Shown: positions 42,416 through 63,809, numbered from the stretch's first letter. The stretch is 64,000 bases of DNA from Candidatus Obscuribacteraceae bacterium (GCA_044226015.1 JBGAHS010000001.1:1312001-1376000); one strand, 5' to 3'. Notes: generated from the letters alone by a model not told the origin. A program made the numbers and translations.

Positions 42416-42652
42416 CCGCAAATTCGGATCGATACCGATCGAGTTACGAAATTGGATCGATACCGATTGAGTAGCAAGAATATCTGTGCCTTCAGAAGCG
42501 AAGATTTTCCTTAGGCTGGATGGAGTTGTTGAAAACGCAAATTTGGATCGATACCGATCGGGTTGCGAATTTGGATCGATACCGATTGAGTAAGATTATC
42601 TGTGCCTTCAGAAGCGAAGATTTTCCTTAGGCTGGATGGAGTTGTTGAAAAC
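42416..42652. repeat. Two copies of a 116-119-bp intergenic repeat, each with two GGATCGATACCGAT cores
   Basis: ATCGATACCG at 42428, 42456, 42547, 42575; TATCTGTGCCTTCAGAAGCGAAGATTTTCCTTAGGCTGGATGGAGTTGTTGAAAAC twice. Confidence 0.9.
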
Positions 42653-46592: not shown

Positions 46593-47555
46593 TTAGACCG
46601 CTGACGGCACGAAAACCTTGGAAGGAGAAACATAGCTCTGGATAAGATTTCGATTTGGCGGTTCGGCTGAACAAAATTCAAACCAACAAGATTGATTCCA
46701 GTTTTTAGTGAGCGAATTCCAAAACAAAGCTAAGTACATCTGCACATATTTACGGCTGATTCTCTGCCAAATATTTTTTGTGGTTTGGAAAAATTGTTCT
46801 AGGGATGTGCCGATGGTTTCAATAGATGGTGGAATGCCTTGTGTTTCGCTAAGTTTGTACGATTGACCATTCCTAGACTCGATCAATCCTCTAAACTGTA
46901 GGCTCGTCAAACCCATCACCAAATCATCAAAGTTAATGCCGATAATTTCGATTAGCTCGTCAAGGGTCTGAAACTCATCTATCTTGAGACACTGAAAAAT
47001 TGATTGTTCAAGTTCGCTGAGGGAATTTAAATGATCATTCGATTGGGAATCTTTATGTTCGAGTTTGTTTAATGCAAGTTGTTCTTCTTTTGGATGTGCA
47101 TTAGCCGGAGTCTCTGAGCTCCTTCTACAAAAGAGCTCAAGAAACACTGCTGTCGAAACGAGAGGTAACTCTCGCATTCTTTCAGTGATGAAAAGCGCGA
47201 TTGTCTTGATGATGTTTTGCGCTGTCGATAGCGCTGTTCCGAAAATCTTCGCAAACTCATACGCGGAGAAGAGTATTCCTTTTTCTGTGAGCCAGAGTCC
47301 TGCAAACCATGCTCGAACTAAGCGAACTCTCGCAAAGACTGTATCAGCATATATTCTGCGTTTACGACCACAATTATCACACTCGGAAATTCTAGGATTT
47401 TGCGTAACTGTGTATTTGTCACTTCCACATCTTTCGCAATTTGGTGTTTGGAAAATCAACGATAGTGCTCTGTGACAGGATAATTCATCCGGAAACAATT
47501 TGTTGAACTCCTGCATGTTTCGCTGGAGATCACTTTCTCTTTTTTCCTTCGCCAT
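46593..47555 (-). CDS. IS1595-transposase-like Zn-ribbon/HTH protein with internal winged-helix and no recognisable DDE domain
   Basis: FPDELSC...CERCG...CDNCG...TVF...WF (IS1595-type Zn ribbon); LSELEQSIFQCL...TLDELIE...LTSLQFRGLI (DprA-like wHTH); ISRKYVQMYLALF (IS1595-like C-terminus); ATG 47555 with GAGGAG RBS. Confidence 0.65.
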   Translation of the reverse strand: MAKEKRESDLQRNMQEFNKLFPDELSCHRALSLIFQTPNCERCGSDKYTVTQNPRISECDNCGRKRRIYADTVFARVRLVRAWFAGLWLTEKGILFSAYEFAKIFGTALSTAQNIIKTIALFITERMRELPLVSTAVFLELFCRRSSETPANAHPKEEQLALNKLEHKDSQSNDHLNSLSELEQSIFQCLKIDEFQTLDELIEIIGINFDDLVMGLTSLQFRGLIESRNGQSYKLSETQGIPPSIETIGTSLEQFFQTTKNIWQRISRKYVQMYLALFWNSLTKNWNQSCWFEFCSAEPPNRNLIQSYVSPSKVFVPSAV

Positions 47556-47581
47556 GATCACGCTCCTCTTTGTTCTTTTAT

Positions 47582-47833: not shown

Positions 47834-48081
47834 AATTACTCGGACTCACTGATTTTTTTCTGGCAAGTGCTAAGGCGCCTGCGATTTTCTACCGCCAATC
47901 CTAACGCAATTATTTCCAAGCTAAAAAATTGCTCTTACTCACGGACTTTGTTTGCTGGCAAGTGCTAAGGCGCCTGCGATTTTCTGCCGCCTGTTTTAAC
48001 GCGTTTATTTACAAGCCAAAAATTACTCTGACTCACGGATTTTTGCTTGCGAGCGCCATTGCGCCTGCGATTTTTCTGCCG
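47834..48081. repeat. Diverged 93-94-bp tandem repeat (about 2.6 copies) overlapping the 3' end of the DUF488 gene
   Basis: Units start at 47834, 47927 and 48021; shared ACTCAC.GA...GCGCCTGCGATTTT. Confidence 0.8.
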
Positions 48082-48628
48082 ATGTTTCCCTCTCGGAATC
48101 TGCGTTTGCCAAGAAAAGATTGAGCTGGGTCGGGGGCTCGTCTACATGATTCGCCAAAACCAATTCTAAATAAGTTTGCAAATCACCATGCTTTCGGATA
48201 TGCAAAACATCAATCCCGGATTCAGATGCAAATTTGGAAATTAAGAGATGGCGATGGCAGCCGCTAGGATCCTCCTCTCCGCACATCACGGCAACTCTGA
48301 ATGATTTAATACCTTTCTGCAACCGTTCCATGCCACCGAGAAACTTACTCGATGCCGCGAGTTTTGCGTAATCCACGAATCCCTCGGAATCGTAAAACTC
48401 GTTTTCTTTCGGTTTACCGCCTATCTCATGACCAAGAAATACGTACTTGAAGTTCCTTTTTTTTAACTCTTGTTTCAAAAACTCACCTGTGAAGTGCGTT
48501 GCATAGCGCGAGTAAGGATTGCTCCTTACGTCTGCTACCACTTCTATTGAGTGCATAGCTAGTAGCTCGATGAATTTGTCCATCGAATAGTTTGAGTGCC
48601 CGATAGTATAGAGTCGAAGTGTGCTCAC
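48023..48628 (-). CDS. DUF488 family protein
   Basis: LYTIGHSN, VADVRSNPYSR, MCGEEDPSGCHRHLL. Confidence 0.9.
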   Translation of the reverse strand: MSTLRLYTIGHSNYSMDKFIELLAMHSIEVVADVRSNPYSRYATHFTGEFLKQELKKRNFKYVFLGHEIGGKPKENEFYDSEGFVDYAKLAASSKFLGGMERLQKGIKSFRVAVMCGEEDPSGCHRHLLISKFASESGIDVLHIRKHGDLQTYLELVLANHVDEPPTQLNLFLANADSERETSAEKSQAQWRSQAKIRESE

Positions 48629-48662
48629 GCTTTAACTAATCGAAAGCTTGTGAAAGTTCCAG

Positions 48663-50408
48663 CTATTCGGCAACCAGTTGATATATGCGGTCGAGTGCAG
48701 CGTCAACGTCAGCCGGCAACTGCACTCTTAATAGGCGCCTTTTTCGCGAGCTCAGTGCTTTGAAGTCACCGAGCGCTTGAGCTTCTTTCAGGACTGCGAA
48801 ACTAAATTTCTCTCCCGGAATTTCAACGTCTTGTTTTTCTTCGCTTGTGATTTGCAAGAAGACGCCGCTGTTTGGTCCACCTTTGTGCAACTGCCCCGTT
48901 GAGTGTAAAAACCTTGGTCCAAAACCAACAGTTGTGGCGACTTTGTATTTCTGCATTACAAAGTCGCGAATCCTTTGGAGTTTAGCCTCCAGTCTGGGGC
49001 AGCACTCAATGTATGCATTTATAGCAAAGTAGTTGCCAGGGCTTAACTGTGAGAGGTGTGCTTGAAACAATGCTCTCATCGTTTCCTTACTTCCAACTTT
49101 TGCCTTAAGTTGCTTGATGTTATCGTCGTCGGCAAACAACTCGAATCCACTTTCAATAACGAGCAATTTGTTTTCTGGAAGATACCCTTCTTCTTCGTAT
49201 TCAGCGAGTATCTCTTTGGTGAAATCTTTGCTCTCTTGCACATTTGGCTGATTGAAAGCGTTAATTCCGATAATTGAGCCGCCGGTTGCAGTTGCAATTT
49301 CCCAACGCAAGAATTCGGCTCCCAGGTGAGCCAGATCGCTCATTTCAATACGAACCACTGGTTGCCCGGCTGCCTCTAGAGCTGCGATCCGCGCATCTTG
49401 ATCGGGACAGGTTTTCGTTGAAAGTCGCACATAAACAAACAATCGATCAGAACCATAGTCAGATGGTTCGCTTAGCGTTTCCGCTGCAATCGGTATAATT
49501 CCTTTGCCGTCTTTGCCAGTGCTCTCTGCAATGAGCTGTTCAAGCCAGGTGCCAAGGCTGTGCACCGCAGGTGATGTCACTAATGTGACTTTATCTCTAC
49601 TTCCTCTGGTTAGGACACCAAGGATTGTACCAAGCAACACGCCTGGATTGTCTCCCGGAGATACTTCTGCACCACACATCTTTTGCATGCTGTGGGCATG
49701 TTCTAGAATCTCTTTGACGTTAAGTCCCATTACTGTCGCTGGAACCATACCGAAGTTTGATAGAGCTGAGAATCGACCGCCAATACTTGGTCGTCCGTAA
49801 AAGGTGTGAGCAAACTTCAAATCCTTTGCTTTCTTCTCCATCGAAGAGCCAGGATCAGTGATAGCTAAGAAATGTTCTCCTGCTTTGTCACCAACGATTT
49901 TTTTTGTTTCGTCATAGAAGTATTGGCACAGAACGTTAGGTTCTGTCGTGCTTCCAGATTTGCTCGCCACGATGAAAAATGTTTTGCCTGGATCAATCTG
50001 GTTTCGGATACTGAGCACCTGTGCGGGCACTACTGAGTCAAGAACCAACATTTCGGGATGACCAGCTATGTTCCCGAATGTTTGTCGCATAACTTCTACA
50101 CAGAGGCTGCTTCCACCCATTCCCAGCAAGACAGCATGCTTGTAATTCTTAGACTTGATCTCGCTGCTGAGTGCGTCAAGTTTGCCGAGGTGCTCAAGTT
50201 GTTCATCAACAATGTCGAGCCAGCCTAGCCAGTCGCCCTCATCTTTGTTGCTCCACAAGCTAGCATCTTTTGACCAGAGACGTTTGGGAAAATCTTTGCT
50301 GGTAAGAGCGGCGAGTTCAGCTTTTAATGCTTCTTCGAATTTTCCTAGCGAATGGCTGGTTGCACCGGTTTTGACATTCTGCGCCACACTGCTATCGGCG
50401 TTTCCCAT
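48663..50408 (-). CDS. pgi: Glucose-6-phosphate isomerase (PGI-domain type seen in Tal-Pgi fusions)
   Basis: LGMGGSSL, VASKSGST, IGGRFSALS, EQLIAESTGK, FNQPNVQESK, GPRFLHSTGQLHKGG; ATG 50408 preferred over the ORF-track start 50450. Confidence 0.88.
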   Translation of the reverse strand: MGNADSSVAQNVKTGATSHSLGKFEEALKAELAALTSKDFPKRLWSKDASLWSNKDEGDWLGWLDIVDEQLEHLGKLDALSSEIKSKNYKHAVLLGMGGSSLCVEVMRQTFGNIAGHPEMLVLDSVVPAQVLSIRNQIDPGKTFFIVASKSGSTTEPNVLCQYFYDETKKIVGDKAGEHFLAITDPGSSMEKKAKDLKFAHTFYGRPSIGGRFSALSNFGMVPATVMGLNVKEILEHAHSMQKMCGAEVSPGDNPGVLLGTILGVLTRGSRDKVTLVTSPAVHSLGTWLEQLIAESTGKDGKGIIPIAAETLSEPSDYGSDRLFVYVRLSTKTCPDQDARIAALEAAGQPVVRIEMSDLAHLGAEFLRWEIATATGGSIIGINAFNQPNVQESKDFTKEILAEYEEEGYLPENKLLVIESGFELFADDDNIKQLKAKVGSKETMRALFQAHLSQLSPGNYFAINAYIECCPRLEAKLQRIRDFVMQKYKVATTVGFGPRFLHSTGQLHKGGPNSGVFLQITSEEKQDVEIPGEKFSFAVLKEAQALGDFKALSSRKRRLLRVQLPADVDAALDRIYQLVAE

Positions 50409-50642
50409 TTCCTTATCCCCTTGTGAAGCTATCAGACTCGATGATGCCAAGACTATTATTTCCCGGCTGTCAGCATACCGGGCGAGGCAATCCTAATGCG
50501 CTAAGTATATCTAAATATGTCCCGAGAATTGAGACTCTTTAAGAGTACTTTCCTCACAAAAAGCTGTAATTCTGATGTCAGCAAGTGAGTTCTGCTACAC
50601 TATGCCAGACATTTGCGCATAGAGTCGATTGGGAGGTTCTAG

Positions 50643-51080
50643 ATGGTTGAGACTATTCAACTAACTCGCCAGGTTCAGGTTAAAGCTATTGTCACTGAAA
50701 ATTTCAAGGGGCAGGTCGCCGCTGAAATCAATCGCAACCTGCAACAAATCGATGCAGAGCTTCAACAGTTGGAATTCAAAGGCAAGAGAGCTATCTCTGA
50801 TATCGAAAAGAGAAGTCCCAGTCCTATGCCCCCCGAAGTGAAAGCTCAGGTTGAAACGATCAGGCAGCAGGTCGAAGCTGAGAAGCTCCGCTTAATGCAG
50901 CTGAAAGAAGAAATGACAGCTCAGAGCAACGCGCTTAACGAATTGCCTATTGGAAGTGTTGTTACTCAATTCACAGTCGAAAACCAGGTAGATGTCAGAA
51001 TCGGGGAGAACATATTTCAACGCCTTGAGGGCGGTGAGATTCTCGTTAAAGACGGCATAATTCAAGAGATTCGTATCTAG
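50643..51080 (+). CDS. YlqD family protein
   Basis: VQVKAIVTE...QIDAELQQLEF...EILVKDGIIQEIR pattern; RBS GGAGG. Confidence 0.85.
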   Translation: MVETIQLTRQVQVKAIVTENFKGQVAAEINRNLQQIDAELQQLEFKGKRAISDIEKRSPSPMPPEVKAQVETIRQQVEAEKLRLMQLKEEMTAQSNALNELPIGSVVTQFTVENQVDVRIGENIFQRLEGGEILVKDGIIQEIRI

Positions 51081-51121: not shown

Positions 51122-51316
51122 TCAGCAAGAGGTCCGAAGATTGGGAAGTGCTCCTTGATCCTCTAGCGACAGCATTTGCGAGGATGCTTCGCGCGGACCC
51201 TCGGTTTGAGCTGGCTTGTTAAGGGCTTGCAATTCAAGGTTTTTCCAAATCTGAGTAGCCCAGCTAGACTGAGAGTCATCAGTCTTATCAATCGAATTTC
51301 CAGGTTTGTCGGTCAT
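51122..51316 (-). CDS. Small hypothetical protein (about 64 aa)
   Basis: ATG 51316 with GAGGA RBS; non-overlapping ORF. Confidence 0.4.
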   Translation of the reverse strand: MTDKPGNSIDKTDDSQSSWATQIWKNLELQALNKPAQTEGPREASSQMLSLEDQGALPNLRTSC

Positions 51317-51450
51317 AGTAACGGGTCCTCGCTTGATTTCGCCCAATCAATGCGATCCTCATTCACTTATCGCATCAAAGAGGAATGACATTTTTGTAAC
51401 ATTTTTACACCTTGAAATTTCGAAGGTCAAAATCAAATGCCGAGTAGCAA

Positions 51451-51659
51451 TTGGAAAATCGAAACGCAAACGGTAGCGATTGGAAAATTGAAACGCAAAC
51501 GGTAGCGATTGGAAAATCGAAACGCAAACGGTATCGATTGGAAAATCGAAACGCAAACGGTATCGATTGGAAAATCGAAACGCATCGATTGGAAAATCGA
51601 AACGTAAACGGTAGCGATTGGAAAATCGAAACACAAACGGTGTCGATCGGAAAATCGAA
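51451..51659. repeat. 29-bp tandem array (about 7 copies) TTGGAAAATCGAAACGCAAACGGTA(G/T)CGA
   Basis: Units at 51451, 51480, 51509, 51538, 51567 (7-bp deletion), 51589, 51618. Confidence 0.95.
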
Positions 51660-51823
51660 GCCAACAAGTTCCGTTCAGAATTTGAATAGCGTTATCTCAA
51701 AGCGATAGCATTTCGTCAATTTATAATTGCGATATTGGGATATTCGCTTCCTCTACCTTTAGATCAATGGATTATTCGCGGAACCATGTATTGATTCACC
51801 GGGAATTTAATACAGCCGTCACT

Positions 51824-52642
51824 TTAGGAGGCGAGCTTGAAACCTGCTACTTGTTTCAGATAGTCTCGCAATGAGGCAATCCAGAATTGGAGCTGAGCTG
51901 TTGTAACATCGAAACCGTCGGTGGCTTCCAACTTTGCAAGGCATTCGTAAAGCTGGCGCGACGATTCCAGTGAACGAACCGACAACTCTTCGATTGTAGC
52001 GATGTGTTGCTCTGATCTTCCGGTCGAAAGGGTTATGAGTTTGTTTTGTGCACGGCTAAGACCCATGATGAAAAGCCCGCGCTTCCATGGCTCGCAATTA
52101 TTCAACACCACTCGGATCATGAACTTCTCTGGAACGCCTGCTGCAGGCATCTGGTCCATATCTTCTTGGATTTCGACTACCTTTTTTCTCTTTGTCTTGA
52201 ACTGTGCTCCCCATGCTGCTGGTTTCAAATCCTCTGAGGTAATTTGTGACTCAACCAATTGCGAGCCGAATAATCTGCAGGCTATGCATGTGTGTTTCTC
52301 AACTGCTTTGACTAACCCTTCGTTGTCTTCGCCATAACGTATCAATAAATCTTGGAGATAAGTGCCACCATCATTTTTTGGTTCGCCAAGCCTAATGCAA
52401 GCCTTATCGCGATTGAAACTGTCGCACACATACCCAGGTCCTAGTGTTTCTTTCAACAACGACTCCACTTGCCTGCGCAAAAAAGTCTTGAAATTAGATC
52501 CAGAGATGTAAGGCATACCTGAGAGGTCTTTTAAAGTATAGAGGTCTGGGGAATTTCGCCTTCCGTCTCCGGATTGTTCGAGACGAGCACCATTTTTACA
52601 TTTGATGAAACCTGTGAGAACCACGCGGGATTGAAAACTCAT
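51824..52642 (-). CDS. RAMP-superfamily Cas7-group protein (Csm3/Csx7-like), stand-alone
   Basis: DLYTLKDLSGMPYISGSNFKTFLR (compare PxIPGSSxKGxLR); Cys cluster ending CIACRLFGS; C-terminal G-rich loop degenerate. Confidence 0.8.
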   Translation of the reverse strand: MSFQSRVVLTGFIKCKNGARLEQSGDGRRNSPDLYTLKDLSGMPYISGSNFKTFLRRQVESLLKETLGPGYVCDSFNRDKACIRLGEPKNDGGTYLQDLLIRYGEDNEGLVKAVEKHTCIACRLFGSQLVESQITSEDLKPAAWGAQFKTKRKKVVEIQEDMDQMPAAGVPEKFMIRVVLNNCEPWKRGLFIMGLSRAQNKLITLSTGRSEQHIATIEELSVRSLESSRQLYECLAKLEATDGFDVTTAQLQFWIASLRDYLKQVAGFKLAS

Positions 52643-53010
52643 TGTGGTGCTACCTCGCTAATACGAACTGTTGGGGGCAAGATATGGCACCTGACGACAC
52701 TGCTGCGTAAGCAGAACGCCGAGCTAAGTAGCTGGCGGTATCAAATATGGTGCCCTTACGGGTTTCTCTCAAACTTTATTGCGTAACAGTATACACAGTT
52801 AATCTATAACAGGATCGTCGTTACCAAAAATCGCGGGTTAAAAATAGTTCTTGTCAACTTCGTGCTTACGGAATACTGCATGCTGCCCCGTTCGGGCGGG
52901 GTCTGGTTATCTAACTTGCCCGCTGATAGATGACGCCAACTGTTTGCAGGATTACCGGTAGACATTCGACGATGCATTTCTTTTGCTTGCAACACGAGCT
53001 GTTTCTGGGG

Positions 53011-53440
53011 GTCGGGACGGCAAGCGAGATCCGCCAATGGGTGGCGTGAGGACAGTAAGCCAGATCTGGCAGCTGGAGCCAGGCGGCAGGGCTTCAATCA
53101 GATCTGGCAGCTGGAGCCAGGCGGCAGGGCTTCAATCCAGATCTGCCAGCCGGAGCCAGGAGTGAGGACAGTAAGCCAGATCTGCCAGCCGGAGCCAGGA
53201 GTGAGGACAGTAAGCCAGATCTGCCAGCCGGAGCCGGGAGTCAGGACGGCAAGCGAGATCCGCCAATGGGTGGCGTGAGGACCGTAAGCCAGATCTGCCA
53301 GCCGGAGCCGGGAGTCAGGACGGCAAGCGAGATCCGCCAATGGGTGGCGTGAGGACCGTAAGCCAGAGCTTGCAGCTGGAGCCAGGAGTCAGGGCTGCAA
53401 GCCAGATCTGGCAAGCTGGAGCCAGGCGGTAGGACGCTAA
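53011..53440. repeat. GC-rich mosaic tandem array, 11 units of 35-39 bp anchored on AGATC
   Basis: AGATC/AGAGC at 53027, 53062, 53100, 53139, 53178, 53217, 53256, 53291, 53330, 53365, 53404. Confidence 0.9.
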
Positions 53441-62559: not shown

Positions 62560-63549
62560 TTACTCTTCGAGATAATCGCGCAGCTTTTCAGTGTGATCCG
62601 ATGTTCGCAGTTGGCGTAGCGCCTTCAGCTCAATTTGGCGAGTGCGCTCTCTTGTGATTCCTACAAGTTTTCCAACCTGTTCAAGAGTTCTTTGATTACC
62701 ATCTTTCAAACCAAATCGAAGGATGATGATTTCTCGCTCTCTTGCAGTAAGCATTGAAAGAACGCCTCTGATATCCAGCGCCAAGAGAGCTGATGCAGTT
62801 GACTCTTCTGGTGGAGTTGACAGTTCATCCTGCACAACATCGGAAAGACTGTTGTCTTCTTCCTCACCAAGCGGAGAATCCAACGACATCGGTGTTCTGT
62901 TTGCCGCCAGCACTTCTTTAATCTTGGTGATACTGCATTTCATTGCTTTTGCAAGATCTTCCATTGTGGGTCGGCGACCAAGCTCTTGCGAAAGCTGACG
63001 CGTCGTCTTACGCAAATTGTTAATCGTCTCGACCATATGCACTGGCACGCGAATAGTTCGAGACTTATCCGCAAGGGCTCTTGTGATACCCTGACGAATC
63101 CACCATGTCGCATAAGTGGAGAATTTGTATCCGCGTTCAGGGTCAAATTTCTCTGCCGCTCTGATGAGCCCCAGGTTTCCTTCTTGAATCAAATCAAGAA
63201 AAGGAAGACCTCTATTCTGGTATTTTTTTGCAACGCTAACTACCAGTCTAAGGTTCGCCTGCACCAGTCTTTTTTTTGCTAGCTGATCACCCTTGCAGAT
63301 GCGTCTTGCTAGCTCAATTTCCTCTTTTGCAGACAGGAGTTTTACTCTTCCAATATCGCGAAGGTAAACCTGCACAGAATCTTCAGAGCGGGAGCGCCCT
63401 GTTACATCAATGTCGGGCTCGCTATCGTCGCTATTTTCGTTATCACTGAAGAGATCTGGGTTGTCATAACCGGACTGAGCAAAGTCCAGTGTGAAATCAT
63501 CCAACGTGATATCTTCGATTGTTTGTGTATTGTATCTTGCCATTTTCAT
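62560..63549 (-). CDS. RpoD/SigA-family sigma-70 factor (short acidic N-terminus; group 1 or 2)
   Basis: [61 protein letters not shown]...TRERTRQIE. Confidence 0.95.
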
Positions 63550-63809
63550 TAGCGGTCCAAGTCCGCTGTTTGTTGGTGTATACGATATTTCCGTGAAGTA
63601 GTCCGCGCATTGGACTACGCCACCACAGGAGTGGAGGCGCGGAAATTTTTCAGGTACTCGGTTTAGTTGACGACTCTACTATTAAAATGTTCCAACACCA
63701 ATGTTGGAATGACGTTAACCCTAGATCTTTTTGTCGTAAGTACTCGGTATTCTTTTGTTAGTAATTCACGGCTTTGCTGCGAAGCTTCTTACGCCAAAGA
63801 TTCTCAGGT

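Follow-up and report, generated by a model that had tools for sequence, protein, structure and literature searches.

The 64,000-nucleotide stretch of DNA analysed here (the window; G000:C11:1312001-1376000) comes from the genome of a Candidatus Obscuribacteraceae bacterium (G000; 8.19 Mb in 13 contigs, 92% complete) whose relatives carry the source label Candidatus Obscuribacterales. On its minus strand lies a gene, called solo cas7 below, whose product is a RAMP protein of the Cas7 group; tandem repeat arrays flank it, with ylqD and pgi beyond one of them and a sigma factor gene farther out on the other side (Table 1). An initial annotation, made from the sequence of the window, proposed an exapted Cas7 that stands outside any CRISPR-Cas operon and may bind RNAs derived from the two arrays. 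Here, we describe the protein, its orthologues, its chromosomal site and its probable origin from Csx7 of a type III-D system, and weigh what it may do.

Table 1. Features of the solo cas7 locus, in window positions; those of the gene and its product come first.
Feature	Position	Strand	Basis or occurrence
Solo Csx7-derived Cas7, 272 aa, single copy	51824..52642	(-)	profile and fold matches
PDLYTLKD, aa 32-39, with D33 at the Csm3 catalytic Asp position	52526..52549	(-)	alignment
PYISGSNFK palm/alpha-1 motif, aa 44-52	52487..52513	(-)	alignment
Predicted zinc-binding insertion, C73/C82/C119/C122 invariant (30/30)	52277..52426	(-)	alignment; zinc role from homologues
Eroded thumb, aa 145-172	52127..52210	(-)	alignment and model
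LSTGRSEQH, aa 205-213, in place of the glycine-rich loop	52004..52030	(-)	alignment
Conserved -10-like promoter box TGTGTATACT	52788..52797	(-)	exact in 9/10 orthologous loci; not listed by a sigma-70 scan
Degenerate copy of a family-wide spaced palindrome, just past the promoter box	52737..52754	(-)	not specific to solo cas7
29-bp x7.7 tandem array, CGGTA[CTG]CG core, judged a bystander	51444..51659	.	165 bp past the cas7 stop
35/39/74-bp mosaic tandem array, unique in the genome, judged a bystander	53011..53435	.	369 bp before the cas7 start
64-aa ORF ending LP..RTSC, downstream of cas7	51122..51316	(-)	4/8 genus loci; conserved in G063, G064, G065
Hairpin, compensatory changes in 4 loci, fixed TGGAG loop	51092..51110	.	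between ylqD and the 64-aa ORF
ylqD, convergent neighbour	50643..51080	(+)	9/10 loci
Glucose-6-phosphate isomerase (pgi), control for selection and tree	48663..50450	(-)	neighbour in 10/10 loci
RpoD-like sigma factor, other flank of the ancestral insertion site	62560..63549	(-)	8/10 loci

The open reading frame (ORF) begins with ATG, and its product is matched by the Csm3 profile of PADLOC (3e-14), by TIGR02581, the Csx7 equivalog family (E 1e-14; 54.6 bits, below the cut-off of 108.05), and by the Pfam RAMPs family PF03787 (E 0.003; 18.3 bits, under the 22.1 cut-off). An AlphaFold model (predicted local distance difference test, pLDDT, 73.7) has the type III-D Cas7 8bmw_H as its best fold match in Foldseek (E 4e-6) and aligns with it over 208 residues (Z 12.8, root-mean-square deviation 7.0), and the top matches in an atlas search are RAMP or Csx7 proteins throughout (0.93-0.94). 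The product is a Cas7-group RAMP, nearest to Csx7, with the RNA recognition motif-like RAMP fold. The initial annotation had recognized a 272-aa RAMP by its motifs (PYISGSNFK, PDLYTLKD, a four-Cys cluster, LFGS, here aa 124-127, and LSTGRSEQH); all of them are located in this ORF, and the RAMP fold that it left to be checked is borne out by profile and structure searches.

A protein search returned 27 relatives at 63-94% identity, and 30 proteins of the solo Cas7 clade were compared with 30 canonical Csx7 proteins, the clade set being the more closely related of the two. R6, D39, R56, the four Cys, FGS and D138 are present in 30/30 clade members, S49 and K52 in 29/30 each; S49, K52 and R56 occupy positions that face the CRISPR RNA (crRNA) in Csm3. 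The alpha-1 pattern [IV]PGSSxKGxxR is recognizable together with FGS, yet its P remains in only 2/30 clade members and its second G in 1/30. Position 33 holds Asp in 28/30 and Glu in 2/30, and the D-x5-D spacing around it equals that of IDNPVIKD in T. onnurineus Csm3, which reads IANPVIKD (Asp to Ala) in mutant PDB chains. By alignment, D33 lies at the catalytic position, and its presence does not in itself imply activity. In the literature Asp36 is named as the catalytic residue (PMC7937560), and in S. epidermidis Csm3, K52/K54/R56 and the glycine loop are turned towards the crRNA, with D32 catalytic (10.1101/452599).

The thumb spans 26-40 aa in the clade, shorter than in any canonical Csx7 (43-50 aa), and of its canonical pattern R.GV.IDR...E.VP the key Arg is left in 2/30 clade members and the Ile in 1/30. 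Identity within the thumb (0.22) is the lowest of all regions in the clade and among the highest (0.49) in canonical Csx7, whereas most regions outside it are more conserved in the clade, the zinc domain and the C-terminal helices far more so (0.60-0.62 vs 0.15-0.21). AlphaFold places a thumb hairpin in the canonical Csx7 P0032 (strands 151-159 and 164-176) and none in solo Cas7, where residues 143-167 have pLDDT <50. The canonical C-terminal loop G..SRG.G occurs in 0/30 clade members vs 26/30 canonical proteins, and the Gly of the N-terminal GxG loop in 0/30 vs 90%. The clade thus lacks the thumb beta-hairpin, the C-terminal glycine-rich loop and the N-terminal GxG loop, and the shortened thumb and eroded G-rich loop first described in one protein extend across its 30 members. 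Residues newly fixed in the clade include R177, C183, Q199 and S227 (30/30) and S196/R197 (29/30).

Among 107 genomes of the order, one intact copy of the gene was found in 8/8 genomes of genus g1 and 2/2 of genus g28; the eleventh match is a canonical Csx7 in genome G022, and a broader profile found no additional clade member. The range is narrow, two genera known here from metagenome-assembled genomes alone. In a sample of the phylum, 20/400 other genomes matched, only at the level of canonical Csx7 (E 1e-11 to 1e-20), and a search of viral contigs by exact peptide patterns found no relative of solo Cas7. The ten orthologous loci share the neighbours listed in Table 1 (the sigma factor count includes the window's own) and, in 8/10, a DUF488 gene. 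All other RAMP and cas1 matches in these genomes lie on different contigs from solo cas7, and no second RAMP stands on the same contig in 10/10 genomes, where HRAMP, ARAMP and type IV-B would have a Cas7 with Cas5 plus a nuclease or Cas11. An eleventh clade copy (locus L035), on a 5.6-kb metagenome contig, has other neighbours and an ORF list with no apparent cas gene. The site is without cas7 in 9/9 genomes of other genera: the sigma factor abuts ylqD in eight, and four unrelated genes lie between them in one (at two other-genus loci ylqD was hidden by the ORF filter and was placed from separate searches).

The cas7 tree agrees with the pgi tree in its main groups, and none of the 10 orthologues contains a stop codon. 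Synonymous sites are saturated (pS 0.72-0.93); nonsynonymous divergence (dN) from six close members of the genus is 0.20-0.27 for solo cas7 and 0.21-0.28 for pgi, and the ratio of dN to synonymous divergence (dN/dS) in the closest pair is 0.021 and 0.028, respectively. Solo cas7 is inherited vertically, under purifying selection like that on pgi. The exaptation first proposed therefore emerges stronger than it was put, the orthologues being solo at 10/10 genome loci, syntenic and under purifying selection. The pgi-DUF488 block (window 48023-50450) adjoins ylqD in g1 and g28 and was not seen in the nine other-genus stretches, and it may therefore have reached the site in the same ancestor as solo cas7.

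Solo cas7 is also the only PF03787 match in the G000 genome. Family models found no Cas1, Cas10, Cas6 or DevR-type Cas7 in the whole 92%-complete assembly, and when the relatives' III-A, III-B and III-D Cas proteins were searched against it with tblastn, only the Csx7 query matched, at solo cas7. A repeat-spacer scan gave 97 candidates, of which five weak 3-copy ones were left, none convincing as CRISPR, and a mini-array pattern found in relatives (see below) had 0 matches. Of the parts that make up a III-D system (cas10, cas5/csx10, small subunit, csx19, cas6, and an array or mini-array) none was found in the assembly; the lack of cas10, cas5, cas6, cas1 and a spacer-bearing array, initially noted for the window, thus holds genome-wide, and a search for a type III locus in G000 found none.

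Such a system exists elsewhere in the family. The III-D operon of G022 (locus L022, G022:C32) reads cas10 with GGDD, cas7, csx10, csm2, csx7, cas7 and csx19, and in a tree of 52 proteins the 16 clade rows are monophyletic (SH-aLRT 100, stem 1.01), with the Csx7 of this operon plus one other protein as their sister group (99). The likely ancestor of solo Cas7 is a Csx7 from a III-D operon of this family. P0030, which was not found among the genome contigs and comes from a single contig of 3.9 kb, still has part of the glycine loop and seems intermediate between canonical Csx7 and the clade; the graded intermediates P0032, P0030, P0031, P0029 and P0001 let the exaptation of a CRISPR subunit be tested directly. 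With III-D Csx7/Cas7 (TIGR02581; nearest HEY9867743.1, which is P0032 in G022; 8bmw_H, 8s9t Cas7-2x), its sister group at 31% identity, solo Cas7 shares the RAMP fold, the four-Cys insertion, the alpha-1 S-K-R, FGS, the catalytic-position Asp and the C-terminal helices. Unlike III-D Csx7, it has no cas10, csx10, csm2, csx19, cas6 or array beside it, has lost the thumb and both glycine loops, and has a fixed chromosomal site, its own promoter box and vertical inheritance. It is not classed here with the components of type III-D systems, because it falls short in thumb, G-loop, profile score and operon context alike.

The reading we favour, with a probability of roughly 0.58, is that solo Cas7, a domesticated protein predicted to bind zinc, works without a guide and binds single-stranded RNA of the cell in a host role; domestication itself is highly probable, and much less secure is the step to RNA binding. 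In class 1 complexes the palm binds RNA and the thumb of the neighbouring subunit kinks it every six bases (PMC7937560). Solo Cas7 keeps palm, zinc site and Asp without thumb or G-loop, so no guide would be presented to a target, yet single-stranded RNA could still be bound. The crRNA filament with its kink every six bases would no longer be built; RNA may be held through R6, S49, K52, R56 and FGS by a monomer or short oligomer; the newly fixed R177, C183, S196-R197-x-Q199-x-K201 and R229 may provide a new specificity or partner; and D33 may either have retained RNase activity or be structural. Free Cas7-type subunits offer a precedent: S. epidermidis Csm3, when free, is monomeric and adheres to nucleic acid (10.1101/452599), and free Csm3 and Csc2 bind single-stranded RNA non-specifically (10.1101/452599, PMC4615900). 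Removing the lid tip of Csc2 cuts its RNA binding only modestly, a basic groove beside the zinc domain mattering more (PMC4615900). Among S. epidermidis Csm3, T. pendens Csc2 and M. kandleri Csm3, which serve as precedent for sequence-independent binding of this kind, two have structural zinc (10.1101/452599, PMC4615900); unlike solo Cas7, free Csm3 and Csc2 are normal subunits of complete systems with thumb or lid and glycine loop intact.

Several points weigh against this reading. Csm3 catalysis normally requires a guide-target duplex, and D33 is replaced by Glu in 2/30 clade members. The glycine loop faces the crRNA in Csm3, and its loss, together with the changes within the alpha-1 motif (P to S, G to N/T), could therefore equally mean that RNA is no longer bound. 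The clade has a nearly neutral net charge (-4 to +6), against -12 to +2 in the more acidic canonical Csx7. The list of newly fixed residues is inflated because relatedness is closer within the clade set than within the canonical set, the two AlphaFold runs (solo Cas7 and P0032) rest on alignments of different diversity, and the tree was a quick run. Genomic context covers 11 clade members (10 genomes and L035), the rest being assigned by sequence, and the G000 genome is 92% complete.

The best-placed alternative, itself unlikely, is that the domesticated protein does not bind RNA and serves as a zinc-stabilised Cas7 scaffold for a protein partner or DNA, through its newly fixed surface. The loss of the thumb and both glycine loops would fit, as would the new invariant S-R-x-Q-x-K segment where the lead-in to the G-loop was, and the zinc domain and C-terminal helices are much better conserved in the clade than in canonical Csx7. 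Against it, the RNA-facing or catalytic R6, D33, S49, K52, R56 and FGS are kept in 28-30/30 proteins, down to about 33% identity, and the sole DNA motif near the promoter, a spaced palindrome, is abundant in 82/82 family genomes with or without the gene. For the same reason a solo Cas7 that binds the palindrome beside its promoter was rejected. The palindrome, (G)CACCR-N4-YGGTG(C), has 166 exact copies in G000 vs 0-15 when the gap has another length; among spaced palindromes CACC-N6-GGTG ranks first (9-fold), about 90% intragenic and in several frames. Across the family the palindrome has 8-388 copies per genome (control 0-5), and it is found in 0/2 genomes of the sister family.

Relatives of G000 hold type III loci of their own. 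Six of them (five g1, one g28) have a type III-A operon of cas10, csm2-5 and cas6 with no regular array in the stretches examined (L023:6055-12170 in G062, L024, L032, L033, L029 and L052); it is absent at the corresponding place in G000 (G000:C7:301.8-303.0 kb). The five loci covered whole have the same flanking genes and a Cas10 without GGDD, truncated in g1. Behind cas6 lies a mini-array in which two eroded repeat hairpins enclose a single spacer. This spacer is near-identical in 5/5 g1 genomes tested and different in g28, and contains CTCCTTT, complementary to a ribosome-binding site (anti-Shine-Dalgarno). A search for its target found none: at 3 mismatches only the mini-array itself matched the spacer in 5/5 genomes, and at 2 mismatches its 16-mer gave control-level counts in 3 genomes. 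The module looks like a domesticated RNA-guided regulator or addiction module; the accessible part of Shmakov et al. reports no conserved mini-arrays in type III systems (10.1101/2023.03.03.530964). G000 has lost the whole module cleanly, and solo cas7 is therefore independent of it; a solo Cas7 that uses the relatives' fixed guide was likewise rejected, the mini-array being absent from G000. The other type III loci of the relatives are L022, the profile-checked III-D locus with canonical Csx7, and L025, L026, L034, L027 and L030, which presumably are III-D2 or III-B, to judge from their gene order.

These loci bear on a second and less probable alternative, in which the thumbless subunit acts in trans and caps or poisons the Cas7 filaments of the fixed-spacer III-A module or of incoming III-B and III-D systems. 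The same two genera hold that array-less operon, other RAMP loci occur in 7/10 genomes that carry solo cas7, and a subunit with a palm and no thumb could terminate a filament. Yet operon, Cas6 and mini-array are all gone from G000, and G061 (91% complete) has no other RAMP match or cas1; terminal branches show no relaxation in module-less genomes (0.23 and 0.19, vs 0.26-0.32 with the module), and descent is from III-D Csx7, not III-A Csm3.

The arrays that gave rise to the original RNA-binding proposal lie where it put them (about 165 bp downstream and about 370 bp upstream), run head-to-tail and have no unique spacers. A run from another study contains the gene as well as contigs derived from the arrays, but neither array is spanned by a single contig, and copy numbers are given as assembled. 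The proposed model, a protein that assembles on RNAs of the flanking arrays as a CRISPR-independent ribonucleoprotein and would in this resemble VIPR (Vipr RAMP and vrRNA; bioRxiv 10.64898/2026.04.26.720920), has some support: both arrays lie <400 bp from the gene, only 19/5370 ORFs in G000 have arrays within 500 bp on both sides, no terminator-like site is listed between the cas7 stop and the 29-bp array, which could be part of a read-through transcript, and array transcripts from the minus strand fold a little better than shuffled sequences (z -2.4 and -2.1). VIPR itself shows that a lone RAMP can go with a tandem-repeat RNA, and it shares with solo Cas7 the lack of a CRISPR array and the long intergenic flanks.

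Nevertheless, the model is very improbable. At the same threshold, 0/9 orthologous loci have arrays within 500 bp (at two of them there are weaker repeats of an unrelated kind, 21 bp x4.5 and 57 bp x2), and alignments of their flanks show no array similarity. G000 has 271 tandem arrays by one threshold, about 149 of them non-coding and with differing periods, and the core of the 29-bp array is common to 41/271. In an 88-kb stretch around the gene, 18/43 ORFs have an array on one side and 5/43 on both, among the latter a gene for a GGDEF regulator and one resembling an aminotransferase, and the upstream array sits 214 bp beyond the conserved promoter-like box. The array sequences have no Rfam match, and their longest GGY-NN run is 3, vs 9-16 in vrRNAs. 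Vipr is an early-branching RAMP, mostly viral, that has both thumb and G-loop and is accompanied by a vap gene and 9-16 YNNGG repeats (10.64898/2026.04.26.720920); solo Cas7 is a late derivative of III-D Csx7, cellular, with neither thumb nor G-loop, no GGY-NN tract and no viral relative found, and it nests among Csx7 proteins in a tree that held no Vipr sequence. An array-derived guide RNA was rejected on the absence of arrays at orthologous loci, the lack of an Rfam match and the lack of VIPR-type GGY-NN runs. The arrays are likely bystanders that play no part, a quirk of the G000 genome, and the coincidence in an array-rich region that the initial annotation had allowed for is the better reading, the bracketing being real and locally unexceptional. 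Array sites in the window lie at 42417, 46107, 51444, 59057 and 61809, many arrays share the CGGTA[CTG]CG core, and few arrays are present at the relatives' loci.

A decaying remnant of a lost III-D operon with no present function, which eroded motifs, scores under family cut-offs and the complete III-D operon with a sister gene in the family might suggest, can be dismissed because the orthologues are solo, syntenic, stop-free and under purifying selection equal to that on pgi: dN/dS is 0.021 (with saturated dS), far from the value near 1 expected of decay, no ordinary type III operon surrounds them, and the promoter box is conserved across genera.

Seen against known systems, domesticated solo Cas7 would be unusual. 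Solo cas4 and cas6 genes are known. Solo cas1 genes appear in a literature listing, and our literature search found no solo Cas7 of this kind, although subscription papers and supplements may contain one. HRAMP, ARAMP, type IV-B and the Streptomyces I-E/STAND module resemble it in having a Cas7 derived from type III or type I, no array or adaptation genes and a lineage-restricted range (PMC8730458, PMC12669027, PMC7937560). They are multi-gene, however, with Cas5 plus a nuclease, Cas11 or an NTPase, whereas solo Cas7 stands alone among housekeeping genes; type IV-B assembles on non-CRISPR RNA, and its Csf2 keeps the thumb. Array-less CRISPR derivatives described so far are multi-gene modules or viral systems that retain the guide-gripping parts, and a single Cas7 kept like a housekeeping enzyme minus those parts is a natural deletion experiment: the 272-aa protein poses the question of which functions the palm, zinc domain and catalytic Asp of a Cas7 have when there is no guide. 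It is possible, if on balance doubtful, that it represents the first fully domesticated Cas7, a single-gene, guide-free host RNA regulator or ribonuclease, in a lineage where a type III-A system has also been frozen around a single fixed guide, with two separate pieces of type III systems possibly recruited for host gene control in the same ancestor. If so, a loop would be closed, leading from a common RNA-binding fold into CRISPR and out of it again.

Some smaller features of the locus complete the description. The TGTGTATACT box, conserved across genera, is a putative -10 element; the 10-mer has only 4 copies in G000, 3 of them upstream of genes with no theme apparent, and a regulon defined by it was rejected on these grounds. 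Among public runs, no RNA data set was listed as containing the gene, which says nothing either way about its expression. Downstream of the 64-aa ORF, the hairpin is likely a terminator. At window 46593-47561(-), a 322-aa ORF with weak matches to an IS1595-type zinc ribbon and a DprA winged helix is absent at the relatives' loci. Upstream of the sigma factor (window about 63550-63760(-)), 8/8 loci share a strongly conserved leader with GGGTTAAC and then the palindrome TTCCAACA-N4-TGT[TA]GGAA, which continues with an AT-rich box and, in most loci, a hairpin-like block; this leader is likely an operator followed by a structured 5' leader.

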